Origin: Patescibacteria group bacterium
GTDB taxonomy: Bacteria > Patescibacteriota > CPR2 > UBA1875 > CAIMLA01
Direction of reading: 5' to 3'
Assembly: GCA_041738615.1 (NCBI GenBank)
Contig: JBGSPL010000001.1
Span: 92,071 to 156,070 of the forward strand
DNA length: 64,000 nucleotides
Positions 1,357 through 62,047 of this stretch are shown piece after piece. Numbering within the stretch: position 1 is the first letter of the stretch; each line of letters starts with the position of its first letter. The notes beneath the pieces were generated by a model, which was given only the letters and a program-made list of their open reading frames with translations, was not told the DNA's origin and did no database searches. The position numbers and the translations under genes are program-made.

Positions 1357-2586
1357 ATGGCATTAACAAGAAGTAAAATCAAAGAAGGACGTGAGAGTGG
1401 AGGGACTGGTCGCCCTGATTATTTGTTGATTTTACTTATTTCCGCTCTTCTTGTTTTTGGTATCATCATGATTTCTTCGGCTTCTGTCGTCATGAGCAAA
1501 ACAGGAACCGGCAAAGAGAACTTCTACTTCTTTTCTCAGCTTCAGGCTGCGGGAATTGGGCTCGTACTTCTGTATGTCGCAAGTAGGATCAACTATGGCT
1601 TTTGGCGCAAGGCAGCTCTGCCTTTTTTTGTCCTAAATTTCGCGATGCTCGTGGCTGTTTTCGTGCCAGGTATCAGCTTCAGTCACAACGGCGCGACGCG
1701 CTGGATCCACCTGGGATTCATTAATTTTCAGCCTTCAGAATCGATTAAGCTCGCCCTAATCATCTTCCTAGCCTACTGGCTGGAGAATAAAGGTGATGAT
1801 ATCAAGGATCTCTACAAGGGAGTTTTGCCTTTTGCCGCCATTACGGGCTCTGTCGTCGGTCTTGTTCTCTTGCAGCCCGATATGGGGACTTGCTCAGTAC
1901 TAGCCGTGAGCGCTGCAGTGATGTTTTTCGTTTCTGGAGCAAGATTTCGTCACATCATAACGGCGGTAGGGGCGGGGATCGCTTCACTCACAGTACTTAT
2001 CGCGATGGCGCCGTATCGTATGGCACGTCTTACTATCTTTTTGCATCCGGCCACTGACAAAAGCGGCGCAGGTTATCAGATTTCACAGGCCTTGCTGGCT
2101 ATCGGCACGGGGGGGCTCACGGGCCTTGGTTTCGGACGTAGTCGTCAGAAGTTCAATTATCTTCCCGAGGCAGCCACGGACTCGATCTTTGCGGTGATCT
2201 CCGAAGAGCTGGGCCTCATTCGTGCGGGGCTTGTGGTAGTGGTCTTTTTGCTTTTTGGGGTCAGGGGATATAAAATAGCAAAGGGCGCACCAGATACTTT
2301 CTCGCGTCTCATGGCTACCGGGATTACGACCTGGATTATCGCTCAGGCATTTATAAATATCCTAGCAATCCTGAGCCTAATGCCACTTACCGGCGTCCCG
2401 CTGCCATTTATAAGCTACGGCGGCACATCGCTGGTAATGATTTTATTTGCTTGCGGTATACTACTGAGTATTTCAAGACATGTTGAACAAGGAGGAATGG
2501 ATGCGAATAGTCGTCTCGGGCGGTGGAACTGGTGGTCACATTTCGCCGGTTCTCGCGGTCGTCGCAGAACTGCAAAAGCTAGATAG
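1357..2586 (+). CDS. ftsW: SEDS-family peptidoglycan glycosyltransferase FtsW/RodA
   Basis: 409-aa protein with about 10 TM helices and a SEDS-like central region (PSESIKLALIIFLAYW, QPDMGT). Lies between mraY and murG. Its Arg-rich 3' tail overlaps the murG start by 86 bp. Confidence 0.85.
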   Translation: MALTRSKIKEGRESGGTGRPDYLLILLISALLVFGIIMISSASVVMSKTGTGKENFYFFSQLQAAGIGLVLLYVASRINYGFWRKAALPFFVLNFAMLVAVFVPGISFSHNGATRWIHLGFINFQPSESIKLALIIFLAYWLENKGDDIKDLYKGVLPFAAITGSVVGLVLLQPDMGTCSVLAVSAAVMFFVSGARFRHIITAVGAGIASLTVLIAMAPYRMARLTIFLHPATDKSGAGYQISQALLAIGTGGLTGLGFGRSRQKFNYLPEAATDSIFAVISEELGLIRAGLVVVVFLLFGVRGYKIAKGAPDTFSRLMATGITTWIIAQAFINILAILSLMPLTGVPLPFISYGGTSLVMILFACGILLSISRHVEQGGMDANSRLGRWNWWSHFAGSRGRRRTAKAR

Positions 2587-3700
2587 TACGGTAGAGCTTT
2601 TATATATTGGATCCAAGGAAGGTCTGGAGAGTAAAATTATTCCTCAGACAGGGCTCAAGTATGTCGGCATCAGTGCAGGCAAATTTCGTCGTTACCACAC
2701 AGCCACTTGGCTTAATATTATCGACCCCACCACTTTGTACAAGAATGTTGTCGATTTCTTTCGTTTTGTGAGAGGTTACTTCGAGGCCAAGGAAATCATT
2801 GCTGAATTCGATCCAGATGTGGTCTTCACCAAGGGTGGCTACGTCAGTTTGCCAGTAGGGCTAGCGGCACATTCTCTCGGATATCCGGTAGTGGTGCATG
2901 AAAGTGACAGTGTGATGGGTCTTTCCAATCGCATCCTCGCAAAACGCGCCGACAAAGTTTGTGTTTCGTATCCACTAAAGTCATATACCGAAGTCGAAAA
3001 GGATAAACTCGTGTATACTGGCAACCCAGTAAGGAACGATATTTACGACGGTAGCAAAGAGCGCGCTATCACCGAATTTCGGCTTCACGACAAGTTGCCA
3101 ATACTTTTTGTCATCGGCGGCAGCCAGGGGTCTCTAGTGATCAATCAAGTGGTTTCCGAGTCGCTTGCGAAGCTCCTCGCCAAGTACCAGATTATCCATG
3201 TTTCTGGTGAGAGAGACTATGACTGGTTAGGTTTTCAGGCGAGTAAGCTGGCTCCAGAGCTTTCGGCAAACTATCATTTGTACAACTTTCTTTCGGGGAA
3301 CCTAAAGGATGCCCTTGCAGTTTCCGATCTAGTAATTTCGCGGGCCGGGAACAACGTCATCGCCGAGATTGCTGCCCTCGAAAAGGCGGCAATTCTGATT
3401 CCACTGGCATCATCGGCAAACGGTCATCAGGTTTCAAATGCCAAGATCCTTTCCCGTATGGGCGCAGCTATGCTGGTCCTTCAGGAGAGTCTTACTCCCC
3501 GAATCCTTGAGCGTAAAATCGATTATCTCTTCGAGAATCCAGAGGAGCGTGCTGGCCTGGCAACGAAGCTTTCCAAGCTTGCTTCCCCAGAGGCTGCAGG
3601 CGCCGTCGCCGACATTATCTACGACTTAGGTACCAATTTTGTTCTAGAAACAAAGGCGGAGGAGGAAACCCCTGAGGAAAAGACTGAGGAAACTGAATAG
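2501..3700 (+). CDS. murG: UDP-GlcNAc:lipid I N-acetylglucosaminyltransferase MurG
   Basis: MRIVVSGGGTGGHISPVLAV G-loop, GT28 N- and C-terminal domains. Start chosen at the ATG at 2501, which is preceded by AAGGAGGAA. The ORF track's upstream ATG at 2480 lacks a ribosome-binding site. Confidence 0.9.
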   Translation: MRIVVSGGGTGGHISPVLAVVAELQKLDSTVELLYIGSKEGLESKIIPQTGLKYVGISAGKFRRYHTATWLNIIDPTTLYKNVVDFFRFVRGYFEAKEIIAEFDPDVVFTKGGYVSLPVGLAAHSLGYPVVVHESDSVMGLSNRILAKRADKVCVSYPLKSYTEVEKDKLVYTGNPVRNDIYDGSKERAITEFRLHDKLPILFVIGGSQGSLVINQVVSESLAKLLAKYQIIHVSGERDYDWLGFQASKLAPELSANYHLYNFLSGNLKDALAVSDLVISRAGNNVIAEIAALEKAAILIPLASSANGHQVSNAKILSRMGAAMLVLQESLTPRILERKIDYLFENPEERAGLATKLSKLASPEAAGAVADIIYDLGTNFVLETKAEEETPEEKTEETE

Positions 3701-3806: not shown

Positions 3807-4481
3807 TTGCTGCTTGGGGCACTGATCTATCTCGTATTTGTTTCGGGGATTTTTGGTGTCACCCAGGTGGAGTTCTCAGCCACGAAATTTGTAAATAGGG
3901 GAGAGCTAGCGAGCGCTGCTAAGAGTGGCGAGACATTTTTGGATAATAATATTATTACTTATGGTGTTTTTGGCCTCGCTGGCAGGCTGCGAAAGGTGAC
4001 TGGGGTGGATAAAATCTCCGTTACCAGGCTAGGGCAGCATAGCGTTCGTGTGGAGATAGTAGAGAAGAGTCCCCTTCTTGTCTGGCAAACGCTGGATCAC
4101 AAGTACCTTGTCGACGATCTTGGCTACATTTGGGCGAACTACCAGGATAAGTATGCTACTCTGCCGGTGTTCGTAGACACTAAGAACCTCCCTGTGCGGG
4201 TGGGTGACAAGGTCTTGCCTCAAGCCTCCGTGGTCTTCTATAAGGACCTCCAGGGCCTTTTCCCCGAGACTGGTGCCAAACAGGTGCGCTACGAGATTAT
4301 GGACATCATCAGTGACCTCAAAGTTACTACCGACCAGGGATGGTATGTATACTTCGATACGAGCCGTAGTGCCAAAGGCGAGGTGATCAGTCTCAAGCGG
4401 GTTCTTGCCGACGCCAAGAGTAGTGGGGCGAAGTTAGAGTATATAGATCTCCGCATTGCTAATCGCATCTTTTATAAGTAA
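3807..4481 (+). CDS. ftsQ: cell division protein FtsQ/DivIB (POTRA domain)
   Basis: TTG start, N-terminal TM helix (LLGALIYLVFVSGIFGV), then a POTRA-like segment (ISVTRLGQHSVRVEIVEKSPLLVWQ). Positioned after murG. The start codon is uncertain and the in-frame ORF continues upstream. Confidence 0.65.
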   Translation: MLLGALIYLVFVSGIFGVTQVEFSATKFVNRGELASAAKSGETFLDNNIITYGVFGLAGRLRKVTGVDKISVTRLGQHSVRVEIVEKSPLLVWQTLDHKYLVDDLGYIWANYQDKYATLPVFVDTKNLPVRVGDKVLPQASVVFYKDLQGLFPETGAKQVRYEIMDIISDLKVTTDQGWYVYFDTSRSAKGEVISLKRVLADAKSSGAKLEYIDLRIANRIFYK

Positions 4482-4729: not shown

Positions 4730-5318
4730 ATTATTGAAAATTGAAAACTGTAATTTGAAATTTTGGGGGAGACCTGGGGGAGTGGGCAAGTGGGCAAAAG
4801 AATTAACTAATAATATATTAAATGCTAATTAATTATTATTGTGCTGGCCGCGCTCTAAACTTTCGGTAGGCGAGCGGAAACTGTTTATAGCCCGGGTTCG
4901 TTGGCCGATTTTCATGCCTGTAATTTGACCAAAACTTTGGCACGGAAACCAGCCGACAAAAGGCCTCTTGTTCGCGGGTGCAACCCTTCGATTAAGACTT
5001 ACTGTAGGGAAAATACACGCACAAAACACGTTTTGGATGACCAACTACACCCGGGGATTTCAGAATGCGCAATGTCGTCCAAGATATATTGTGCGACACA
5101 GTATCAATCGCTGAGATGACAGGCTACAAAGCAGTACGGATGTGAAATATTTACTCAAAAATTATATTCCCCTGGGCCTTCCGCTTCCTCGGCGTTGGCC
5201 CCTTCTGTTTTAGTATATATCCAAATATTCACAAATATTGGGCCTCCCGGTTCGGGCCTGTTTTAGACAAAATTACAGCCCATATTGTATGAGCTGTAAA
5301 GATTGCCGAATCGGCAGA

Positions 5319-8300
5319 TTATGGTTTTGTTAGGTGAACAGTCTCCCCTGGCCTTAGCTCTTTGGCGACCACCTTGATTCGTTCGTGAGGTTCTATTGTC
5401 TTTAGGTTGTGAAAATCCTCTGGTGTGATCTGCTTCTCTATTTTTTCACGGTAAATAGGGGTTTCTTTGGGGTGGGAGACAGAGAGTAGCACGTCTTTGA
5501 TCTCGGCCAGGCTCTTCCCTATCGGCTCAGCCTGTACAGGTTTTTCTGGCTTAGGAGTTTCTTTTGGTTCTACTTTTTCGACCACTGCAGGCTGCTCTGC
5601 TGCTACAGGTTCTTTTGGGGTTTCTATTTTCTTCATTGGTGCCTCAGGTGCAGGTTTTCTGGTCTCTTCCTGGGGTTTTTCGGGCACGCTGACGGCCTTC
5701 TTTAGACTAGATAGTGTATCTACCCCAATTTTGTCTGCAATCGTCTCTCGCGCCTTCTCAGAGGGGGTGGCTTTGAGCTTGGTGAGTAGCTCTTCTAGGA
5801 TTGCTTTCGTATCTGTATGGTCCTCAACACCGAGGAACTTGCTTCCGCCTCCAAGACCAGCCCCGATGGCTTGTAGCTGATCGATCATTTCTGCAGTTGT
5901 ACCTACCCAGACGTCTGGAGCGCGACCGTCTCCAAAGAGATCGTGCTCGCGGGGCTCGTACATACTAATCTTTACTTCATAAATCTTCTGGCCATTCTTT
6001 TTGTAGTTATTGCCCTTTTGGCGACCACGCTTATCAGGGATGAGCCCCTCGGGTTTATTGTCTGGCAGGAAGACGTATTTATCGTCCTTATCTTTGTGGC
6101 GGACGATATAGTCGGCACTCTTCTCGAGCTCCGCGATTACTTTTTGTTTCTCGGTCATAGGTTTATCGGCTACTTTCTTCGTATTTTTAGTATTTGCAAT
6201 AATCGCAAGCTGCAAGTCGCTTTTCTTCTGGAGCTCGGAAGGCTTGCTGGCTGGTGGATTAATATTAGTTTCTTTCTTTTCTCGTAGCGGCTGCGTGGGG
6301 GCACTCCCCTGCTCAGATTTTTCGCGGATGATGGTAGGTTTTGGCTTGGTCATGATAGGATCGTCCTTCTCATTGGCGTTGATACCAGCGACCACTGAGT
6401 CCACGTTGTACCAGTGCTTTACCTCTTCCTCTACGATCTCCCGTTTCTTACCGTACTTTTCACGTGATACCGCCTTCACGATTGGAGAGCAGTCCTCTAT
6501 CATCTCAGGCGTGTTTAGGGACATTGCGGAGAAAGGGATACTGGTGACGCCATTGATCAGCATGTTTAGGTACATATGTCTGTTATCTAGGTTTATCAGA
6601 TCGTTTTGGGTAAATACCGGCTCAAATTCCTTCTCTAGGTAGGAGGCGTCAGTAGCCCCGACGCGGAAAGATACTAGCGTACCGACGTTACCAAAGACAG
6701 CGTCACGGACGGTTTCTTCCATCTGGGCAATGTACTGATTGGCTACGCAGAGAGATAAGCGATATTTACGCGCCTCAGAAAGAATAGTCGCAAAGGAGTC
6801 GGTGGCAAAGTTCTGGAACTCGTCGACGTATAGGTAAAAGTCCTTGCGTTCCTCTTCGGGGATGTAGGCGCGTTGCATCGCGGCAAGCTGCAGCTTGGTA
6901 ATAATCAGGCTTCCCAGCAGCTCGGAGTTTACCTCGCCAATCTTGCCTGTCGAGAGGTCCACTAGGAGAATCTTGCCTGTATTCATAATCTCGCCAAAGT
7001 CGATGCTGCTCTTGGGCTGGCCGACGATGTTGCGGATTATCGCAGAAGCCGTAAACTGCCCCACCTTATTTAGGATAGGAGCGACGGTTTCGGTGGCCAT
7101 CTTGTCATTGTAGGTCGAGAATTCCTTGAGCCAGAACATCTGCACTACTGGGTCTGTCACCTGTTCTACGATGCGCTTGCGATAGCCCTTGTCGGTAAGA
7201 AGGCGAACGATACCGAGCATGGTAGAGCCTTCGACTTCAGAGAGCGCTAGTACTGTATGGTTTAGGACGTATTCCAAACGAGGACCCCAGGAGTAGCCGA
7301 ACATACGCTTCAGTACTGAGATAAAGCCCTTGGCCGTTTCCTCGCGCATCCCCTCGGGGCTCTCTAGTGGATTGAATCCGATCGGGAAGTCCTTGTCCGC
7401 AGGGTTTAGGTAGATTACATCATCTATGCGTTCCTTCGGGATGTATTTCATGATCAGCTCTATTAGCTCGCCATGAGGATCCACGACAGCTACACCCTCG
7501 CCATTTATAATGTCGTTAATCGCAAGGTTTGCCATCATGCGTGATTTACCAACACCACTCTTACCGATGATGTACATGTGACGTCTGCGGTCGTCTCGAG
7601 TAATACCGAAGGTACGCTTGCCGTTACGGAAGGTCGTCGTGCCCATCGGAGTAAGCTCTATATCTACAGCATCCTCGGCATCGATTATGTGCAGGCTGCT
7701 TGGTGGCTCGCCCTTTTTGGACGAGGTCCACAAGATGTTTGGAGTCTCTACAGAAACGTGAGGCAAGTGGTATAGGCTGGCCAGCTCCTCGATGTTTAGT
7801 GTGTAGCCGTGGTTATTGAAAAGACGAGCACGGTAGGCGTCCAGAAAGTCCTGGCCTGTATAGAGCCCACTTCCCTGGAAACCGTTTAGATTAGTCGTAT
7901 TGAACTGTTTGAAGGCACCGATTACGGCCTGGATACGTTCCTTGGCCTTCTCGGGGCTCTTGGCGAGATAACAGATGCGGATGATTACCTTGTAGCCAAG
8001 CTTGTTGGCCTTCTCTTCAATTGCAGAGAGCTCCGTTTCCTCTGAGTGGGAAAGCTTCGGTACTTCCTTCTCCTTCTTCTCTTTTTCCTTTTTCTCCTTC
8101 TCTTCCTGCTTTTTCTTTTGCTCGGGGGTCATCGGAGAAATAACCGTATTTATCACATACGGAATCGCTTGCAATGGCATGATGAGGACGTCGATTAGTT
8201 TGTGAACCCAGGTATCTTCACCACCGGCCCCACCCTTTTTGCTAGCGATGTGCCCTAGGGAGCCATCTCTCCATTCGTCATCCACTGGCTTGGCGAGAAT

Positions 8301-8894
8301 TTGAATCCACACTTGCTCGCTCTTCTGCTCAATCTTGGAGAGCATTCCTGTGATTCCGGCTAGCGGGTCTACGTCAAAGTTTAGAAAGGTCTTAATCGGG
8401 TAGATTTCATCCTTCGTGAGGACCAACTCGGTTCCGACCACGGCGTCGTCTACCTTGTCGTCGTCGATATCGATATCTAGTGAGTAGTCAGGGACGGTAG
8501 TAATCTCTGCTGTCGGGTACTGGGCGTATACTTGCCCCTCTACAAAGTCCTTTAGATGGGTTGGTACCCAGATAAAGAACTCGATGGCATTGAGGGTCGA
8601 TACTATCTCGAAGCTCAGGTGCTCCTGTACCGAAAGTCCTTTCTTCTGCTGGCTCTTGGGATGTAAGATACCATGAAGAGCCGCGAGCATCATCTCCGCA
8701 GCTACCGGGCCTTTTTCGTTATTTTTAGGGATTTTGATCGAGAGAACGACCGTTTCAATCGCCTCGACATACTCTGCTTTTTTGTAGTTCTTCCAGGTGA
8801 GGTAGGCCATAATCGGTACTACTATCCACCATGTCCAAACCACGACGGACCACATGCCGCCGAGTATCGCCAGGCTAATATCTTGAATCAGCAC
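5319..8894 (-). CDS. type IV coupling-protein-like DNA translocase ATPase (TraG/VirD4/TraD family, FtsK/HerA superfamily) with N-terminal TM anchor and a roughly 420-aa low-complexity K/E/P-rich C-terminal tail
   Basis: 1191-aa protein. One or two N-terminal TM helices (ILGGMWSVVVWTWWIVVPIMAYLTW). Walker A is IIGKSGVGKSRMM and Walker B is YLYVDEFQNF. A coupling-protein C-terminal motif is present (ARKYRLSLCVANQYIAQMEE..FGNVGTLVSFRVG). There is a (KE)n run (KKQEEKEKKEKEKKEKE) and a PKE/PE-rich tail. Confidence 0.75.
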   Translation of the reverse strand: MLIQDISLAILGGMWSVVVWTWWIVVPIMAYLTWKNYKKAEYVEAIETVVLSIKIPKNNEKGPVAAEMMLAALHGILHPKSQQKKGLSVQEHLSFEIVSTLNAIEFFIWVPTHLKDFVEGQVYAQYPTAEITTVPDYSLDIDIDDDKVDDAVVGTELVLTKDEIYPIKTFLNFDVDPLAGITGMLSKIEQKSEQVWIQILAKPVDDEWRDGSLGHIASKKGGAGGEDTWVHKLIDVLIMPLQAIPYVINTVISPMTPEQKKKQEEKEKKEKEKKEKEVPKLSHSEETELSAIEEKANKLGYKVIIRICYLAKSPEKAKERIQAVIGAFKQFNTTNLNGFQGSGLYTGQDFLDAYRARLFNNHGYTLNIEELASLYHLPHVSVETPNILWTSSKKGEPPSSLHIIDAEDAVDIELTPMGTTTFRNGKRTFGITRDDRRRHMYIIGKSGVGKSRMMANLAINDIINGEGVAVVDPHGELIELIMKYIPKERIDDVIYLNPADKDFPIGFNPLESPEGMREETAKGFISVLKRMFGYSWGPRLEYVLNHTVLALSEVEGSTMLGIVRLLTDKGYRKRIVEQVTDPVVQMFWLKEFSTYNDKMATETVAPILNKVGQFTASAIIRNIVGQPKSSIDFGEIMNTGKILLVDLSTGKIGEVNSELLGSLIITKLQLAAMQRAYIPEEERKDFYLYVDEFQNFATDSFATILSEARKYRLSLCVANQYIAQMEETVRDAVFGNVGTLVSFRVGATDASYLEKEFEPVFTQNDLINLDNRHMYLNMLINGVTSIPFSAMSLNTPEMIEDCSPIVKAVSREKYGKKREIVEEEVKHWYNVDSVVAGINANEKDDPIMTKPKPTIIREKSEQGSAPTQPLREKKETNINPPASKPSELQKKSDLQLAIIANTKNTKKVADKPMTEKQKVIAELEKSADYIVRHKDKDDKYVFLPDNKPEGLIPDKRGRQKGNNYKKNGQKIYEVKISMYEPREHDLFGDGRAPDVWVGTTAEMIDQLQAIGAGLGGGSKFLGVEDHTDTKAILEELLTKLKATPSEKARETIADKIGVDTLSSLKKAVSVPEKPQEETRKPAPEAPMKKIETPKEPVAAEQPAVVEKVEPKETPKPEKPVQAEPIGKSLAEIKDVLLSVSHPKETPIYREKIEKQITPEDFHNLKTIEPHERIKVVAKELRPGETVHLTKP

Positions 8895-9977
8895 TTATTC
8901 CCTCCCGTTAGATACAGTATACGTTGCTCTCGCTACCCTTTTGAAGCGCTTTTTTTGTAGGTTTAGTAAAATAGTTGTTTCTTTTACCATGCGACGCTTG
9001 AGAACCTCAACAATAATGTCGTCCTTGTGCATTGGTCGCCCTGCTTCTACGAGGACAGTTTCGATCACTTCCTCGACCACGCCAGAGGCGTATCCCCACT
9101 CAGAGAGTGCGTAGATACCGCGACCGATCAGGACGAAGCGCTCATCACGAATCAGCTCGTTGTGAACGGCTTGCTTTGTCACATGCTTCTCTTTGCCACC
9201 AAAATTCTGGATATGATCGGCGATGGCTGTATAGTGCAGGGGCTTACTATGTTTCTTTAGAATGTAATAAGTCTTGTCCTTGATGCTCTTGGGGTTGATG
9301 TCACGCCAATGAGAAAGACCTAGATGACCAGACTCGGTACGCAGGATAACCTTGCTGATAGCAACGATAGCAACTATCGTCTTGGGCTCTAGTTCTTGGA
9401 CTACCTTGCGGATCTTGGCAACTAGCGATTTTTCCTCGACAGGTTTATCTTCGCTCTTAAGTATTGCAACTGCTTCCTTTAGGACCTTGTCGACTATCGT
9501 AGCTGTGATTGGCTCCGTGAAGTAGCTGCGATGCGCGTGATTGCTCTCGGTATATAGTGAGATATCACTTGAACAAGCGACGATAAAACTGAGCTGATGC
9601 TTTGCCTTGGCACTAGCGTTCTCCCCGAGGATACTATTGTCTAGAGTGGTGGCACGGACTACCCCGCCCTCGCTCTTTATAGCGCCGAGGATTACGGAAG
9701 AGATCTCCTGACCCCTCATGTCAGTAGAGACAAAGTCAGAGAGCTTCTTCAGGGTATTCTTCTCAATCTGGCGAACACGCTCTCGAGTAATTCCGAGCGC
9801 CTTCCCTATTTCTTCTAAAGTTTTTAGTTTGGCTCCAGAGAGCCCAAAGCGATCAGTGATAACTTCTTGGTCACGCTCTTTTTTTAGCTTTGGAGCAGCA
9901 AAAATAAACTCAACTTCTGCATTTACGTCGAGTTTTTGGCCTTTCATATTTGTATTTTGTGGGTTTGCTGTTTTCAT
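8895..9977 (-). CDS. DNA-binding protein: sigma-70 region-4 helix-turn-helix (N-terminal) plus HARE-HTH winged helix (C-terminal)
   Basis: 360-aa protein. The N-terminal segment [37 protein letters not shown] is a canonical sigma region 4.2 HTH. The C-terminal ..[17 protein letters not shown].. matches the HARE-HTH signature (compare B. subtilis RpoE delta GRFLALSDQTWGLRSW). Its stop abuts the start of the coupling-protein gene, consistent with one operon. Confidence 0.6.
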
Positions 9978-10053
9978 TTACAGTGCAATTATAGCACAAA
10001 AGACGCAATGCGTCAACGATTTTATAACACATTTATTCTATGCATTTTCTCAT

Positions 10054-11103: not shown

Positions 11104-11185
11104 TGAGAAGCGCCCCGGAGGGCGCTCTCGAGATGAGAACGTCCTACGGGGCGTGTGGTTAGCGCGGCTGGTAGGCGCTAGAAGA
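11104..11185 (+). repeat. about 80-bp gene-end repeat, copy 1 (contains palindrome gcgccc-cgga-gggcgc)
   Basis: Aligns with 11786-11868 (4 mismatches over 52 bp, then a degenerate tail). The stop codon of ORF 11178..11717 falls inside it. Confidence 0.8.
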
Positions 11186-11717
11186 AGGTCTTCGCGATAC
11201 GCGGATCGACCTTTCGAGATTCGTCGATACCTCCGAAGTGGGGATTCTCTATTGTGGCCTGATAAGCACCCCAGAGCCTGTTCCCTTCTTCTTCGGTGAT
11301 GCTGACGATGATGTCGCTGGCACTGTAGCCCACTCTACCTATCGTAGTCTTGAATGAGCAGGTTGCGTACCAGACGTCAGTGGTCGGGTAATTCTCCCTT
11401 TCATTGCCAGTGTCATCTATCCGGCTGTAGGCCGGAACGTGGGCTATCTGTTCTACCCGCAGGTGGGTTTCTCGCTTCAACGCTTCGGTGGCATATGCCA
11501 CCGACTTATCGAGTACTTTCTGTGCCCACCGGTTGAAGGCCTTTGCGACTCCCTTCCAGAAGTAGTTTGCCACCACGATCATGCAGATCATGGCGATGAC
11601 GATGAAAGCTGCTTTCGGTGTGAACACGGTTCGACCTCCAGTCGGTCCGAGGATGCTAACAAAGGCACCTGCTGATTTGCTCGGAGATATAATAACATAA
11701 TATTCCAATATAGTCAA
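11178..11717 (-). CDS. hypothetical protein with one predicted TM helix (GC-rich island)
   Basis: 179-aa ORF with a TM segment (AAFIVIAMICMIVVANYFW) and no recognisable domain. GC content well above the window background. Confidence 0.4.
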   Translation of the reverse strand: MTILEYYVIISPSKSAGAFVSILGPTGGRTVFTPKAAFIVIAMICMIVVANYFWKGVAKAFNRWAQKVLDKSVAYATEALKRETHLRVEQIAHVPAYSRIDDTGNERENYPTTDVWYATCSFKTTIGRVGYSASDIIVSITEEEGNRLWGAYQATIENPHFGGIDESRKVDPRIAKTFF

Positions 11718-11785
11718 TACAAAGTAGGCCGCAGCTGCATTGGGCTTCTATCCAGCACGACATGAGTACTTGTGTCGAGATTACC

Positions 11786-11868
11786 ATGAAAAGCGCCCCG
11801 TAGGGCGCTCTCGTGATGAGAACGTCCTACGGGGCGTGATGTGGCCCGGACTTCTAGGCGAAATCCAT
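11786..11868 (+). repeat. about 80-bp gene-end repeat, copy 2 (palindrome gcgccc-cgta-gggcgc)
   Basis: See copy 1. The stop codon of ORF 11854..12231 falls inside it. The stem is preserved while the loop differs. Confidence 0.8.
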
Positions 11869-12231
11869 GGCTTCTTGGTTGTCTCCACTGGCATGCAGAA
11901 TGCGCATCAGGTTTGCGACCATTCCGGTCTCCGGGAACCCCTTCGGCTGGAAGGGACCTTTGGGCCGCAGGTCCGGAGGGAGCTCGTGCGGACCGCTGGT
12001 GTCCTTGCGGACGGTAGGACCGAGAGCTTCCCCACCGATAGCGATGGTAGGGACGATCCGATGTCTCTCGGCAAGGCTGCGACGCTTTTCTTTCCGTGCG
12101 TCGCGACGCGCCTCGGCCGCAAGGTGTTCCCGCCTAGCAGCAGCTACGAAAACCTGCTCGAGCTGTTCCACCGATTTGGCCGGATTCCGATTACTCGGGT
12201 GTCTCGCCTTATTGCGGTTCTTCTTCGTCAC
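11854..12231 (-). CDS. hypothetical basic protein (GC-rich island)
   Basis: 125-aa ORF with a Lys/Arg-rich N-terminus (MTKKNRNKARHPSNRNPAK). GC-rich. Competing overlapping ORFs exist on both strands, so coding status is uncertain. Confidence 0.35.
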   Translation of the reverse strand: MTKKNRNKARHPSNRNPAKSVEQLEQVFVAAARREHLAAEARRDARKEKRRSLAERHRIVPTIAIGGEALGPTVRKDTSGPHELPPDLRPKGPFQPKGFPETGMVANLMRILHASGDNQEAMDFA

Positions 12232-12253
12232 AGCTATACCCCCTCGGTAGAGC

Positions 12254-12631
12254 TTACGATGTCGTGTCGGTAGTCCAGACGCCGATTCCCTTGTTCTTGG
12301 CGTACCAGACCGGCTGGCCAGTGGCCTCAGGCAGCTCGCTCGAGCGAACTAGGCTCCAACGCTCGTTGCCGTTTTTGGCGACTCGACAGTAGGCACTGAC
12401 GTTCACCGAGATGCGGCCGGTCTCATCGGACTGGATGATTGCCACCCTCTCGTTCACGGAAACCAAGGTACCCTCGATGAGGATCAGGTTGTCCTTGTGA
12501 TGGCGGGCCGGCTGCCGACCATGTTGGCTCGCGGGCTCTGCCAGTACTACCTCGGTCTTCGCTGAATCACGCTTGCCGGGGACACTAGATACCCAGCCTT
12601 GGTGCTTTCCCACGAGGAACCTCCTACACAT
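12254..12631 (-). CDS. hypothetical protein (GC-rich island)
   Basis: 125-aa ORF lying 22 bp upstream of the previous one on the same strand. No domain recognised. Confidence 0.35.
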   Translation of the reverse strand: MCRRFLVGKHQGWVSSVPGKRDSAKTEVVLAEPASQHGRQPARHHKDNLILIEGTLVSVNERVAIIQSDETGRISVNVSAYCRVAKNGNERWSLVRSSELPEATGQPVWYAKNKGIGVWTTDTTS

Positions 12632-43971: not shown

Positions 43972-45849
43972 CTATCCTAACGACAGCGCCATCTTGTATA
44001 GAAGATCCGACGCAAAGTCATATTTTACTGTCTCTATAGTAAAGAGGAAGTCGTCTTTTGTCCAGGCAAGAGCACCCGTGGACAGCTCGGTAAAGGACAC
44101 CCCGTCTTGCTCACGTGAAACATAGGTGGCCTTGTCGTTTGATTTTATGTACTCTGCGAGAGCGTTAGCGGAATCCTTCTGCTGGGTTTGACTATAGGTG
44201 ATACTCTTGTCCTTGTCATTGACGAAAGTGAATTTAACGGTAAGCTTCTTTTTGCCTTCGTTGTAATTGCTGCTAGACATTTCGTAGCCAGGTGGTAGCG
44301 TCGCTGGGATTATCGAATCAAAGTTTGAGACTTCGGCAGCTTGTTGGGTTCTAGATTGCTGCGCGGAAGGTTTATAGAAATAGACCAGCGAAAAAGTGAT
44401 CGTAAGTATTACGAATAGTCCCCCGGCGATAGCTAGGCCTACAAGTAGCCAAAGTGACAGTTTCTTTTTTTGTCCTTTTTCTCTGATTTTCTGAGGTACC
44501 GGTGTTTGTACTGCTTTCTTGCGGGACTTTGGAGATTTCTTGAAAATGCTGTTTAGCAAGCCACTCTTCTTACGCTTTTTTGGACCTTCTATTTTGTCTT
44601 TGAAGAAGGATTTGATGACTTCTTGCTTCACGCCAGATGCTGGTGTCTCAGGTTCGTCTTCCTTTGTGTCCGCGGGCGTCTGTGGCTCGGTAGCCGAGAC
44701 AGTTGGGTGATAATTTGCTACCACTTCCTTTGCCAGTGGTGCTACTGCATCTGGATCGAAGTCCTTAGAATTTGTAACCTCCGGGCCTACTTCTGGGTCT
44801 TCTAGCGTAGCTAGCTTCTTTTCTGCTGCTTCGATTTCTGCGCTTGAAGATTCGTCCGGATGTGTCGCGGCGGTACTACCCAATTCGTGAGGTAATGTAT
44901 AGAGTTCATCGGCAGGTTTGTCGGGTGTGTTTGACTTCTCGGTCTCTTCGTTGGAGACGGTGGTCGCCACTTCCTTCTCGTCTTCTGGCTCTGGTTCGTC
45001 GCTAACCTCAGGCTCGGGTTTTATGGAGTTAGTGGGTTCGGTTATTTCTGGGGCAGCGATTTCGATCGTATCTAGAGGTGAGGCTATCTCTGGGTTTTCG
45101 ATGGGATTTGCGGGTTTATCTAGGAGCACGCCGGCATGTACCTCCGCTTTCACAGGGTCGTGGATTTCGTCCATGAGTTCCTCGGCAGCTTCTAGTGCTT
45201 TTACTTCATCTTCTCGGTCGGCTGCTTGATAGTTTTCGTTCAAGATATCCAAAAGTATGCCGCTGGCGCCTAGGGTATCGACTTCCTTTACCTTTTCGTC
45301 TAGTGACCTTGTGCTCTGAACATCTTCGGCAGGTGCTTCGAAATCATTTTCGGTAGGTATATCAATAGTTTGCCCGAGAGGTGGTATCTCTTCTAGGTCT
45401 TGAATAGGTTTTGGCGCTTCTGGAACCCCAATCGTTTCCTTTGTGGTTTCAGCTTCGGCAGGAGCGGCAGTGTAGAACCCTTTTTGGTCCAGCGCAGGAT
45501 CATCTCCAGTCCCAACAGATAGTTTGACTGGTTGCTGAGGTTCCGCGATATCAGCCACTACCGGCTCAGCCTGGTCGACTTTTGCTATAATCAAATCGTC
45601 AGCCTCATTTACTGGTAGGCCTAGATCTGACTTCATGCCGTCCTTAATCGGTGTTTGCGGTAGGAGTGGAGCTGTAGGCCTGTCAGTCGGCACTGGCGTG
45701 ACTGGAGTGGTGGGCCTGGCAATGTCGGTATTGATCATAACTCTAGCCTGCGAGTTCGCAGCGCCTACTGTGAGACCACAATTAGAGCAGAATGTTTTAC
45801 CACCCAGCTCAATCGGTTCCATATCGGTACTGCAGTATGGACAGACCAA
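43972..45849 (-). CDS. membrane protein: N-terminal C4 zinc ribbon, about 400-aa acidic/Pro-rich disordered linker, basic patch, single TM, extracytoplasmic C-terminal domain (anti-sigma-factor-like topology)
   Basis: MVCPYCSTDMEPIELGGKTFCSNCGL zinc ribbon, long D/E/P-rich linker, KKRKKSGLLNSIFKKSPKSRKK, TM helix LWLLVGLAIAGGLFVILTITFSLVYFY, then a globular domain of about 150 aa. Confidence 0.5.
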   Translation of the reverse strand: MVCPYCSTDMEPIELGGKTFCSNCGLTVGAANSQARVMINTDIARPTTPVTPVPTDRPTAPLLPQTPIKDGMKSDLGLPVNEADDLIIAKVDQAEPVVADIAEPQQPVKLSVGTGDDPALDQKGFYTAAPAEAETTKETIGVPEAPKPIQDLEEIPPLGQTIDIPTENDFEAPAEDVQSTRSLDEKVKEVDTLGASGILLDILNENYQAADREDEVKALEAAEELMDEIHDPVKAEVHAGVLLDKPANPIENPEIASPLDTIEIAAPEITEPTNSIKPEPEVSDEPEPEDEKEVATTVSNEETEKSNTPDKPADELYTLPHELGSTAATHPDESSSAEIEAAEKKLATLEDPEVGPEVTNSKDFDPDAVAPLAKEVVANYHPTVSATEPQTPADTKEDEPETPASGVKQEVIKSFFKDKIEGPKKRKKSGLLNSIFKKSPKSRKKAVQTPVPQKIREKGQKKKLSLWLLVGLAIAGGLFVILTITFSLVYFYKPSAQQSRTQQAAEVSNFDSIIPATLPPGYEMSSSNYNEGKKKLTVKFTFVNDKDKSITYSQTQQKDSANALAEYIKSNDKATYVSREQDGVSFTELSTGALAWTKDDFLFTIETVKYDFASDLLYKMALSLG

Positions 45850-61048: not shown

Positions 61049-62047
61049 TTATTTAATCTTTTTGAGGGCGCCGAGTAAGTTCTTCTTACTTCGGAGGTAA
61101 GCCCATGCGGCACCACCTGTAGAGGTAAGACCGATGGCACCAGCAGCTGCTTCCGCAGGACCAGAGGTTGGCATGTTGCCCTTACCAGTAGTTATCACTA
61201 CTGGTGTCTCTGGGTGCTTAGGCTCTTCTGGTATGACCGGCTTTTCAGTTACGGTTACAGTGGCGTCACAGATGACTGTGCCACCCTCACCGTTGGCTGT
61301 TAGAGTGTAAGTAGTGGTAGACGCAGGAGTAACCTGATTAGAACCAGAACCTACGACCACGTTGCCTACACCTTGGTCGATGCTAGCTGAAGTAGCATTT
61401 GTAGTGGTGTAACTAAGAGTTGAGCTGTTGCCCTTCTTGACTGAGGTCGGGTTAGCCACGAGCGTACAGACTGGCTTAGGCTTTTCAACTTCGATTACTT
61501 TAACCGTAATTACGATTGACTCCTCGAAGTTGTAGCAAGGTTTCTGTGATGCTATGTTGTAACCACCTCCGACAATGCTGTCGTCGACGCTCACTACTTG
61601 CCAGTTTGGAACAGCGTTCGTACCGGTGTTGAACTTGCGTGTAGCAGATCCAGCAACATACTCTAGCTTTGTTTTCACGTTCGTATTGATAACGGCCGTG
61701 TCAACTATAGTGGCGATGTTCGAACCGCTTACAGTAGCGGTAGAAACATGTCCAGTACCTTCAGTCGTTGGTAGAGCTACCTTGATGTTTAGATTCTGGG
61801 CATTGATCCCAGAATTCTCATTTTCTTTGTTGTGGTAGTAAACCATCACCCTCATCTCATCTCCAGGCTTGGCGCTAGCCGCAGCTCTGTAGGTGGTTTC
61901 GTTGTTGGTTTTGTTACGCACCGTGTGCATAGCTTCGTAGGAGATGTTTCCAGCAGCACTAGCTACAGTACTTACACCAAACATGGCGAGTAATGCGTAG
62001 ACCGCTAGAATTCTCTTACCTTTTAGTTTTGTTGGGTTTTTTTTCAT
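61049..62047 (-). CDS. cell-surface protein with signal peptide, Thr/Ser/Val-rich repeat domain and C-terminal sortase-type sorting signal
   Basis: MKKNPTKLKGKRILAVYALLAMFGVSTVASA signal. C-terminal NMPTSG motif, hydrophobic stretch (PAEAAAGAIGLTSTGGAAWAYL) and basic tail (RSKKN). 332 aa. Confidence 0.55.
   Translation of the reverse strand: MKKNPTKLKGKRILAVYALLAMFGVSTVASAAGNISYEAMHTVRNKTNNETTYRAAASAKPGDEMRVMVYYHNKENENSGINAQNLNIKVALPTTEGTGHVSTATVSGSNIATIVDTAVINTNVKTKLEYVAGSATRKFNTGTNAVPNWQVVSVDDSIVGGGYNIASQKPCYNFEESIVITVKVIEVEKPKPVCTLVANPTSVKKGNSSTLSYTTTNATSASIDQGVGNVVVGSGSNQVTPASTTTYTLTANGEGGTVICDATVTVTEKPVIPEEPKHPETPVVITTGKGNMPTSGPAEAAAGAIGLTSTGGAAWAYLRSKKNLLGALKKIK

Follow-up and report, generated by a model that had tools for sequence, protein, structure and literature searches.

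In this study, we have characterized a two-gene operon in a 64,000-nucleotide stretch of Patescibacteria DNA (hereafter, the window), which recurs among ultrasmall Patescibacteria and pairs a protein combining sigma-70 region 4 with winged-helix domains (SIG) and a membrane-anchored ATPase related to type IV secretion system (T4SS) ATPases (ATP). Across several classes of Patescibacteria, the pair belongs to the chromosome and is inherited vertically, and the operon is neither a mobile element nor a defence island. Because the pair is phylum-wide and vertically inherited and the SIG counterpart of Southlakia epibionticum is essential, we regard it as core machinery rather than defence. Tentatively, and with a little less than even confidence, we favour the explanation that this Patescibacteria-wide core-genome operon couples an accessory, T4SS-docking motor with an essential DNA- or RNA polymerase-binding protein that also serves as the adaptor of the motor. 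Patescibacteria make up a large share of bacterial diversity, and orphan VirD4-like ATPases are near-universal among them.

The operon is confirmed on the minus strand, with SIG upstream and ATP downstream (Table 1). The operon structure given in the initial annotation is borne out by the gene junction, where the TAA stop codon of SIG abuts the GTG start codon of ATP and a GGGAGG Shine-Dalgarno sequence lies within the last SIG codons. This arrangement suggests translational coupling of the two genes. Both genes are bracketed by a single promoter-like site, located 11 nt 5' of the SIG start codon (TTGACG, a 17-nt spacer with TG, and TATAAT; 11 of 12 consensus matches), and a single terminator-like hairpin, located 20 nt past the ATP stop codon (12-bp stem and TTTTGT tail). 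Neither VirB4, VirB6 nor another channel gene was found among the scanned ORFs of the window. Relaxase and mating-pair-formation genes were not found among these ORFs or in the annotated related loci, the exception being the relative at locus L164 described below. The earlier statement that the ATPase stands alone without a secretion channel holds for the window, but Patescibacteria carry a chromosomal T4SS elsewhere in the genome, and relaxases are almost absent from them (PMC12102498).

Table 1. Features of the SIG-ATP operon (positions within the window).
Feature	Position	Strand	Details
Terminator-like hairpin	5273..5299	-	consensus match only
ATP gene	5319..8894	-	1191 aa, GTG start, stop codon included
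ATP conserved C-terminal motif	5322..5429	-	residues 1156-1191
ATP linker	5430..6404	-	residues ~831-1155; K/E/P-rich, probably disordered, poorly conserved
ATP T4CP-type P-loop motor	6405..7598	-	residues ~433-830
ATP DUF8128 domain	7599..8789	-	residues 36-432; fold like VirB4 N-terminal domain
ATP N-terminal hydrophobic membrane anchor, predicted	8796..8879	-	residues ~6-33; hydropathy
SIG/ATP gene junction	8892..8906	-	GGGAGG Shine-Dalgarno, TAA stop, GTG start
SIG gene	8895..9977	-	360 aa, ATG start, stop codon included
SIG HARE-HTH winged helix	9096..9287	-	residues 231-294; Pfam
SIG sigma-70 region 4 (4.1-4.2) HTH	9741..9878	-	residues 34-79; Pfam E 2.6e-13
Promoter-like site, sigma-70-type	9988..10016	-	consensus match only

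The domains assigned earlier to both proteins were recovered with Pfam scores above the gathering cut-offs. In SIG, these are Sigma70_r4 (49.7 bits; cut-off 24.1) and HARE-HTH (41.9 bits; cut-off 25.9), and the protein consists of sigma-70 region 4 and, C-terminal to it, a chain of three to four winged-helix domains, including a second, very conserved winged helix after the HARE-HTH domain (residues ~300-356). A profile search matched region 4 to that of RpoD and RpoS in the PDB at E ~1e-15, and the recognition helix TRERVRQIE is invariant in the family (T64, R65, E66, R67, R69 and Q70). On the one hand, this helix, which contacts the -35 element in region 4.2, is almost identical between SIG and primary sigma factors. 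On the other hand, SIG is devoid of regions 1.2, 2 and 3, and therefore cannot open promoters. Its identification as a sigma factor was rejected, considering that region 4 is present alone, without region 2, and that the NCBIfam sigma models scored far below their cut-offs. The HARE-HTH domain shows fold similarity to the N-terminal domain of the RNA polymerase delta subunit (RpoE), and SIG reached 40.5 bits against TIGR04567 (RNAP_delt_lowGC), below the cut-off of 42; however, SIG has two to three extra winged helices, and assignment as a delta subunit was rejected because the long acidic C-terminal tail of that subunit is absent. The architecture of SIG is constant in 719 clusters (E <= 1e-10), the protein is among the most conserved of the locus, and its conservation is not relaxed in loci without an adjacent ATP. 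We consider that SIG may be a DNA- or RNA polymerase-binding protein which has retained the -35-reading helix of primary sigma factors, presumably with an essential role of its own at promoters or RNA polymerase, and is a candidate for a transcription-apparatus component specific to the phylum.

ATP matched three Pfam families above their gathering scores, namely TrwB_AAD_bind (30.5 bits; 20.5), TraG-D_C (25.4; 22) and T4SS-DNA_transf (21.8; 20.1). The membrane anchor noted in the initial annotation is predicted by hydropathy (Kyte-Doolittle 1.86, 19 residues), precedes a basic KNYKK segment and carries a conserved WTWW..VP motif. Between the anchor and the motor, DUF8128 occupies about 400 residues, and two methods agree that its fold resembles the VirB4 N-terminal domain; this module had been missed in the earlier reading. 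The Walker A (GKSGVGKS, 444-451) and Walker B (YVDEF, 689-693) motifs and the C-terminal motifs quoted there are present, and the motor carries SEARKYRLSL..ANQ and GNVGTLVSFRVG. Both Walker motifs, ARKYRLSL..ANQ and NVGTLVSFRVG form invariant columns in 38 homologues. The nearest solved relatives of the motor by sequence in the PDB are TrwB and DotL, and its identity is 45-73% across Saccharibacteria and 50-59% to WS5, CPR2 and Howlettbacteria. For the all-alpha domain in the motor, the Pfam match spans profile positions 12-289 of 387. Scores against the NCBIfam equivalogs were far lower than required, the best being 43 bits against a cut-off of 366 (SXT_TraD), followed by conju_CD1115 (39 against 250), and a weak match was obtained to CedD, a DNA-translocating ATPase. 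AAA_10 scored 14.7 bits, below its cut-off of 27.5, and the other VirB4 models in Pfam, including CagE_TrbE_VirB, gave no match. The C-terminal motif (ITPEDF..LK.I.PHE.I ... PGE.V.F) is common to the CPR2 and Howlettbacteria homologues and is found in part in WS5, and a Paceibacteria-like ATPase of the split type described below ends in PGD.I.F, similar to the end of this motif.

In terms of known systems, ATP shares the N-terminal membrane anchor and the P-loop motor with its three Pfam signatures with the T4SS coupling proteins (T4CPs) VirD4, TrwB, TraD and DotL, and T4CPs with accessory partners (TrwA, TraM, PcfF) are likewise co-encoded with a small DNA-binding protein of sequence-specific type. 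In F TraD, a conserved extreme C-terminal motif follows a disordered tail, and this tail binds TraM; ATP also ends in a conserved motif after a probably disordered tail. However, in ATP the VirB4-like DUF8128 separates the anchor from the motor, no relaxase or channel genes are nearby, and the gene is chromosomal, vertically inherited and highly conserved, with about 50% identity across classes, whereas T4CPs are plasmid- or ICE-borne. The partners also differ, being ribbon-helix-helix accessories in T4CPs and a sigma-4/winged-helix protein with an essential counterpart here. On the other hand, the layout of a membrane-proximal N-terminal domain and a C-terminal FtsK/HerA-type ATPase is the same as in VirB4 (TrwK, TraC, PrgJ), and the membrane segment at the N-terminus calls VirB3-VirB4 fusions to mind, but the motor fits T4CP profiles and not VirB4 profiles, Patescibacteria have a VirB4 of their own near dnaA (SEML1_0008), and in most genomes ATP is not adjacent to virB3, virB6 or virB8. 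ATP joins a VirB4-N-terminal-domain-like module to a VirD4/TrwB-type motor, and is probably a membrane-anchored hexameric-type motor of the T4SS ATPase family.

The SIG-ATP pair recurs in dozens of independent genomes, far above chance, and its adjacency is kept in Saccharimonadia, CPR2, WS5, Howlettbacteria and others. The initial annotation had made it a touchstone that homologues of the 360-aa protein should co-occur with ATPases of the FtsK/HerA superfamily, and they do so in conserved gene neighbourhoods of several Patescibacteria classes. In a SIG-centred sample of 80 loci from GTDB species representatives, the recurring order is der-pth-dprA-topA-SIG-(ATP), convergent with ftsQ-murG-ftsW-mraY, and SIG is followed by ATP in 42 loci; the gap has a median of 43 nt and is <=150 nt in 38 of the 41 measurable loci. 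Considering that the whole der-to-mraY block is conserved despite unrelated gene functions, SIG and ATP could be neighbours only through the high synteny of Patescibacterial genomes and share no functional link, as would also be consistent with the different essentiality of their counterparts and with the absence of SIG in about half of the ATP-centred sample (28 of the 57 family members with enough upstream sequence). We think this unlikely. The adjacency outlives a complete change of both flanks, S. epibionticum included; the genes abut or overlap, as in locus L096, where the overlap is 4 nt and an ABC transporter is the downstream neighbour; and the pair is also present in lineages in which the ATPase shares no more than 36-42% identity with the query, the L026 ATPase.

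SIG and ATP are not always linked in an operon. One Saccharibacterial clade has ATP at tilS-ftsH-ATP-murJ and SIG still at the old place, so that ATP appears to have moved while SIG stayed. The module and motor of ATP, fused in Saccharimonadia and relatives, are separate genes in Moranbacteria-like lineages, where a three-gene form (SIG, a DUF8128 protein and a soluble ATPase) occurs in three distant lineages. The splits were verified by TAA stops, the membrane anchor is on the DUF8128 part only, and the flanks (dnaB/recR...groES and secDF...trmB) are unrelated to those of the two-gene locus. The separate N-domain protein and ATPase recall TrsD and VirB4, which are abundant in Patescibacteria (PMC12102498). 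The VirD4-like genes of Patescibacteria are mostly located far from virB4, but one member of the family, if not more, neighbours prgI-virB4; at L164, a divergently oriented member adjoins prgI-x-virB4, and the genuine VirB4 there reaches 87 bits against P-loop_TraG.

By domain architecture and gene order, SEML1_0293 and SEML1_0294 of S. epibionticum were assigned as the counterparts of ATP and SIG. The published order is SEML1_0296 (topA), 0294, 0293 (Wang et al. 2023, PMC10633639). In the Tn-seq data of that study, SEML1_0294 (Sigma70_r4 and HARE-HTH) is essential (ES/ES/ES, 1-2 insertions), and SEML1_0293 (TrwB_AAD_bind) is dispensable (NE/NE/NE, 87-120 insertions), although its normalised reads drop from 5817 to 2940 and 1372 with flat neighbours (PMC10633639). 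S. epibionticum also has a complete essential RpoD besides SEML1_0294. In Tn-seq, antitoxin-like pairs classically combine an essential gene upstream and a dispensable one downstream, and SIG might be essential only as a repressor or protein-level brake on a harmful motor, in which case its sigma-4 HTH could occupy the near-consensus -35 (TTGACG) of the operon. We consider this quite improbable, since SIG is highly conserved with a constant architecture across the 719 clusters, is still present where ATP is gone from the operon, and belongs to a pair that is not sporadic, unlike toxin-antitoxin modules. The essential role of SIG may be entirely unrelated to ATP.

The initial annotation had also proposed a defence or DNA-surveillance module, in which a HerA/FtsK-type ATPase would act against phages or plasmids with a DNA-discriminating HTH sensor. 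HARE-HTH domains are indeed known in restriction and phosphorothioate-associated nucleases, and PADLOC-DB 2.0 weakly matched ATP to mad8/HerA and the sigma-4 part of SIG to MzaA. However, these matches are partial and generic (P-loop and region 4) and point to different systems, no nuclease or other effector domain is present, the pair has a fixed, vertically inherited place beside housekeeping genes across classes (topA upstream, the dcw cluster downstream), and the counterpart of the supposed sensor is essential by itself in culture where that of the ATPase is dispensable. This proposal was abandoned as extremely improbable, and the locus no longer counts as a candidate defence system.

Quinonero-Coronel et al. 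(2025, PMC12102498) reported VirD4-like homologues from 2,918 of 3,035 genomes of Patescibacteria, with just 148 of 5,713 located near virB4. The orphan T4CP gene has already been described as far from virB4, non-essential and possibly exapted (PMC12102498; PMC10633639). By domain architecture and gene order, these orphans belong to the same family as ATP, and SEML1_0293/0294 is the same pair. Neither paper mentions a sigma-like partner of the ATPase or its VirB4-like N-terminal domain, and neither reports the split forms or the conservation of the chromosomal position. In the literature searched, no description of the SIG partnership or of the VirB4-like domain was found, in agreement with the earlier view that the two-gene architecture is undescribed. 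What is new here is the VirB4-like N-terminal module on the ATPase, the occurrence of module and motor both fused and as separate genes, and the persistent co-encoding of this ATPase with a protein of sigma-4 and winged-helix domains, the counterpart of which is essential in S. epibionticum.

In the explanation that we favour, ATP would most likely act at the cell envelope as an accessory, dispensable ATPase with a coupling or energising role, probably docking through its VirB4-like module on the chromosomal, non-conjugative Patescibacterial T4SS. Against this predicted link, the T4SS of S. epibionticum is essential and SEML1_0293 is not (PMC10633639). SEML1_0142, a second T4CP-like gene, is essential (PMC10633639) and could be the real coupling protein. 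SIG is probably also the DNA-binding adaptor or controller of the motor because the two are predicted to be persistently co-transcribed, and it may contact ATP physically.

The motor might also work independently of the T4SS, with SIG recognising -35-like or modified DNA and loading it onto the membrane motor for relaxase-free import or export at the epibiont-host interface. Such a DNA-translocation device would follow the logic of TraM-TraD, TrwA-TrwB and the FtsK gamma domain, and would suit the tight phylum-wide operon with its suggested translational coupling, a motor of the DNA-pumping T4CP type with its weak CedD match, a C-terminal motif that recalls the TraM-binding TraD tail, the near absence of relaxases, and the absence of an annotated ComFA-type uptake motor in S. 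epibionticum. It is nevertheless unlikely. Of the two counterparts, that of SIG is essential and that of the motor is dispensable, SIG persists with no relaxation of its conservation in loci that lack an adjacent ATP, and the operon encodes no channel partner. Moreover, comEC and dprA reads stay flat while SEML1_0293 reads fall (PMC10633639), and therefore ATP is not simply part of ComEC-dependent transformation. More speculatively, and with a low probability, SIG and the motor could form a relaxase-free, Patescibacteria-specific nucleoprotein translocation machine, in which SIG, with its primary-sigma -35-reading helix and perhaps carried by RNA polymerase, directs DNA of the chromosome or incoming DNA to the VirB4/VirD4-hybrid motor. 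If true, promoter or RNA polymerase recognition would be coupled to the transfer of DNA or protein across the epibiont envelope. In a related reading, SIG would be a hitherto unrecognised essential RNA polymerase accessory subunit, a sigma-4/delta chimera, throughout the phylum. The presence of the pair as SEML1_0293/0294 in the genetically tractable S. epibionticum provides a testable handle.

Finally, the logic of a membrane-anchored hexameric DNA pump with a winged-helix DNA reader is the same as in FtsK/SpoIIIE and Streptomyces TraB, but here the reader is a separate protein, SIG, and the motor falls in the VirD4 branch. ATP, a membrane-anchored FtsK/HerA-superfamily member, is convergent to ftsQ-murG-ftsW-mraY in many lineages and might accordingly be a chromosome-segregation pump located where the dcw cluster ends, for which SIG would supply a gamma domain in trans. 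This idea is largely refuted and its probability is close to negligible. No Pfam match to the FtsK_SpoIIIE motor, 4TM region or gamma domain was obtained in ATP, and S. epibionticum has a canonical essential FtsK (SEML1_0096, with 4TM, alpha, motor and gamma domains) besides the dispensable ATP counterpart. The link to SIG persists in L096, L178, L179 and S. epibionticum, where ATP is no longer adjacent to the dcw cluster.

The best-supported reading of the pair formed by SIG, the protein with Sigma70_r4 and HARE-HTH domains, and ATP, the TrwB/TraD-like ATPase encoded next to it, is a core Patescibacterial operon. The two genes abut at ...GGGAGGGAA TAA GTG..., and a Shine-Dalgarno sequence lies within SIG. 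Considering this junction together with the one promoter-like site and the hairpin (Table), the locus reads as a bicistronic operon. The surroundings of the pair in the window are housekeeping genes. On one flank lie mraY, ftsW, murG and an FtsQ-like gene, convergent with the pair, and on the other flank lie genes for a ZIP transporter, MgsA and an ECF sigma factor as well as topA, dprA, pth and der. At 27-62 kb of the window, 21 further ORFs (304 aa or longer) were scanned; they encode tRNA synthetases, MreB, MurA-like and MurC-like enzymes, RF-1/2, peptidases and similar proteins, and the scan found no channel gene of a type IV secretion system (T4SS) among them. The ORF, Pfam, junction and ORF scans confirmed what the initial annotation had observed, namely both ORFs with their domains, the abutting pair and no channel nearby.

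Table. Coordinates of the SIG-ATP locus in the window and of homologous genes in other loci
Feature	Location	Coordinates	Strand	Basis or remark
SIG gene, 360 aa	window	9977-8895	-	ORF
ATP gene, 1191 aa	window	8894-5319	-	ORF
Sigma-70-type promoter-like site, near-consensus TTGACG-17-TATAAT	window	10016-9988		consensus match; upstream of SIG
12-bp hairpin and T tail	window	5299-5273		terminator-like; downstream of ATP
ATPase-only homologue	L088	5956-7254	+	IMG/VR contig; also on L090
ATPase-only homologue	L089	5884-7254	+	IMG/VR contig
Split DUF8128 and ATPase genes	L178	8122-11532		also on JGI 3300050821 contig
Split DUF8128 and ATPase genes	L179	8459-11809		

In SIG, Pfam places Sigma70_r4 at residues 34-79 (E 2.6e-13) and HARE-HTH at residues 231-294 (E 1.4e-10). 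The family alignment showed extreme conservation of the C-terminal third and an invariant TRERxRQ recognition helix (T64, R65, E66, R67, R69 and Q70), at the positions with which primary sigma factors touch the -35 element. SIG has no sigma regions 1.2 to 3 and no delta-type acidic tail, and therefore is not a sigma factor and not a delta subunit either. When the C-terminal module alone was searched, 719 clusters at the 50% identity level were found with E <= 1e-10, nearly all of 330-400 aa and carrying the module at their C-terminus.

ATP is predicted to be anchored in the membrane at its N-terminus, where a hydrophobic segment (residues ~6-33) is followed by KNYKK, with most of the protein cytoplasmic. 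In an alignment of 38 homologues, residues ~36 to ~830 are densely invariant; beyond them the sequence is variable and K/E/P-rich until it ends in a short conserved motif, ITPEDF..LK.I.PHE.I...PGE.V.F. TrwB_AAD_bind, TraG-D_C and T4SS-DNA_transf matched above the Pfam gathering scores and DUF87/HerA and AAA_10 more weakly; the nearest NCBIfam models, TraD, VirD4-like and CedD, all remained far below their cut-offs. Residues 36-432 correspond to Pfam DUF8128, a precomputed annotation present on all listed homologues. When modelled with AlphaFold2 (pLDDT 77.7), this region matches the TrwK/VirB4 N-terminal domain in a structure comparison, and TrwK/VirB4 provided the top 14 matches (probability 0.94-1.00) in an independent Foldseek search. 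The motor (residues ~433-830) has TrwB and DotL, which are coupling proteins, as its nearest relatives by sequence, and not VirB4. Taking the modelled fold and the motor sequence together, ATP combines a VirB4-like N-terminal module with a motor of the VirD4 type. Two features define ordinary type IV coupling proteins (T4CPs), a motor placed right after the anchor and a gene linked to relaxase or mating-pair-formation genes, and ATP has neither. ATP also falls outside the sequence definition of VirB4.

A SIG-centred scan of GTDB species representatives yielded 80 loci, almost all labelled Saccharibacteria, and throughout these the order der-pth-dprA-topA-SIG-(ATP) recurs, convergent with ftsQ-murG-ftsW-mraY. 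ATP lies directly 3' of SIG in 42 of the 80, with 45-73% identity over residues 28-825 and a median gap of 43 nt (41 measurable loci). The 29 loci with SIG and no ATP represent essentially a single clade of the SIG tree, in which relaxed SIG conservation was looked for and not seen. ATP-centred look-ups showed SIG directly upstream of ATP in WS5, CPR2, Howlettbacteria and three more lineages; at one homologous locus, L096, the two genes overlap by 4 nt and the next gene downstream encodes an ABC transporter. An ATP-centred metagenome scan gave 80 loci with 36-79% identity to the query, and among the 57 with enough flank SIG is upstream of ATP in 29 and absent in 28. In the ATP tree, nearly all members of a large clade, to which the window, Saccharimonadia, CPR2, WS5 and Howlettbacteria belong, are SIG-paired; a far more distant second clade is paired too, and other deep branches occur in assorted housekeeping contexts. 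A subclade of copies in the order tilS-ftsH-ATP-murJ is sister to the group of homologous loci L026 and L035. Considering this position, loss of ATP in half of the Saccharibacteria was revised to the likelier relocation, and the tree suggests a move of ATP, not its loss, for the clade in which no ATP lies downstream of SIG.

Three distant SIG homologues were examined, one of them from a Moranbacteria MAG, and in this split form, that of Moranbacteria-like lineages, SIG is followed by a DUF8128 protein (426-447 aa) and then by an ATPase (622-707 aa), and the genes on either side are unrelated (dnaB/recR...groES; secDF...trmB). At the split loci L178 and L179, a genuine TAA stop lies at the DUF8128/motor boundary, and only the DUF8128 protein carries a membrane anchor, the ATPase being soluble. 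That SIG, DUF8128 and the motor stay together although their neighbours differ completely favours a real functional cluster of ancient origin over mere synteny, and it speaks against a main rival reading, in which SIG and ATP would have no functional link at all. The SIG gene of L179 was called fused to secF (659 aa), and this fusion may reflect read-through by the gene caller.

Judging by gene order and domain architecture, we take SEML1_0294 and SEML1_0293 of Southlakia epibionticum as the counterparts of SIG and ATP, respectively. In Wang et al. 2023 (PMC10633639), SEML1_0294 is annotated 'RpoS' (Sigma70_r4 27-72, HARE-HTH 225-283; by DPAM, a sigma-like domain and three winged domains) and is essential in 3/3 analyses with 1-2 insertions; topA, SEML1_0296, is likewise essential (supplementary tables). 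SEML1_0293 (TrwB_AAD_bind 402-719) is non-essential with 87-120 insertion sites, and its normalised reads drop from 5817 to 2940 to 1372 while those of its neighbours are flat. An antitoxin-like brake is another main rival reading of the pair. The same study reports that the T4SS of S. epibionticum has no recognisable coupling and relaxase proteins. This T4SS cluster is SEML1_0008-0014. The genome has another T4CP-like gene, SEML1_0142 ('TraM recognition domain'), which differs from SEML1_0293 in being essential.

These data also bear on other roles. A substitute for FtsK is ruled out by the canonical essential FtsK of S. epibionticum, and a split sigma, in which SIG would lend region 4 to a truncated RpoD, by its complete essential RpoD (regions 1.2 to 4). 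A mobile-element coupling protein is ruled out by the vertical synteny. A purely competence-related motor is weakened, since the Tn-seq reads of comEC and dprA, both non-essential, are flat and those of the ATP counterpart drop; ComFA is not annotated in S. epibionticum. The initial annotation had further suggested, as one candidate beside DNA transfer, a DNA-surveillance module in which SIG would act like the sensor of known defence pairings. We consider an anti-phage or anti-plasmid role very unlikely, because PADLOC returned only generic partial matches for the pair, no effector is present, the locus keeps a fixed place and is passed on vertically, and the counterpart of the 'sensor' is essential in S. 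epibionticum.

Within a core operon, ATP would serve as an accessory membrane motor of the T4SS family, and SIG would be an essential sigma-4/winged-helix protein that binds DNA or RNAP and probably doubles as an adaptor or controller of the motor. We infer the substrate moved by the motor, the docking on the T4SS and the SIG-motor contact. The pair is directly testable in a tractable organism. A further main rival is a T4SS-independent DNA translocation device. Quinonero-Coronel et al. 2025 (PMC12102498) surveyed 3,035 Patescibacteria genomes and counted 5,713 VirD4-like T4CP homologues in 2,918 of them, with virB4 nearby for only 148 of the 5,713, and regarded exaptation as possible; a sigma-like partner is not mentioned there. 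Orphan T4CPs and the essentiality data have been published before, and both gene families are already annotated. In the searched literature, no paper combines 'HARE-HTH' with a Patescibacteria term, and no description was found of the conserved pairing with SIG, the resemblance of DUF8128 to VirB4, the occurrence of DUF8128 and motor in both fused and split form or the apparent relocation of ATP.

Several minor observations concern the window. The 224-aa ORF after murG (3807-4481, +) has no Pfam match but probably encodes a divergent FtsQ/DivIB, since POTRA_1 / FtsQ_DivIB_C is found on the genes at the same position in related loci. The murG ORF as listed (2480-3700, +) shares ~100 nt with ftsW (1357-2586, +), and the true murG start probably lies farther downstream. 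ORFs of 625 aa (43972-45849, -), 332 aa (61049-62047, -) and 125-179 aa (three, 11178-12631) gave no Pfam matches or sub-threshold ones only, and are uncharacterised proteins of the typical Patescibacteria sort.

Other relatives of ATP show further contexts. At L118 and L121, ATP is close to the Saccharimonadales ATPase and sits between ftsH and murJ in the tilS-ftsH-ATP-murJ order, with no SIG upstream, probably as a relocated copy; L134 belongs to the same subclade and has different neighbours. The metagenomic locus L164 (1899-8169) is one of the rare cases in which the ATP family adjoins T4SS core genes: a 728-aa member lies divergently beside prgI-x-virB4, where prgI is VirB3-like, x encodes 233 aa and virB4 is genuine (P-loop_TraG, 87 bits). 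The DUF8128/T4CP family includes paralogues, as L124, L125 and L130 carry two of its genes in tandem with a ~170-aa gene between them (829, 170 and 1043 aa). In the IMG/VR scan, the relatives are ATPase-only and occur in phage-like contigs (L088, L089 and L090, with a holin, an M23 peptidase, a PLD nuclease and a PD-(D/E)XK nuclease). These homologues lack DUF8128 and a nearby SIG; they are soluble, 432-456 aa long and ~50% identical to residues 414-828 of ATP, and it seems that the motor module passes between Patescibacteria and the phages presumed to infect them.
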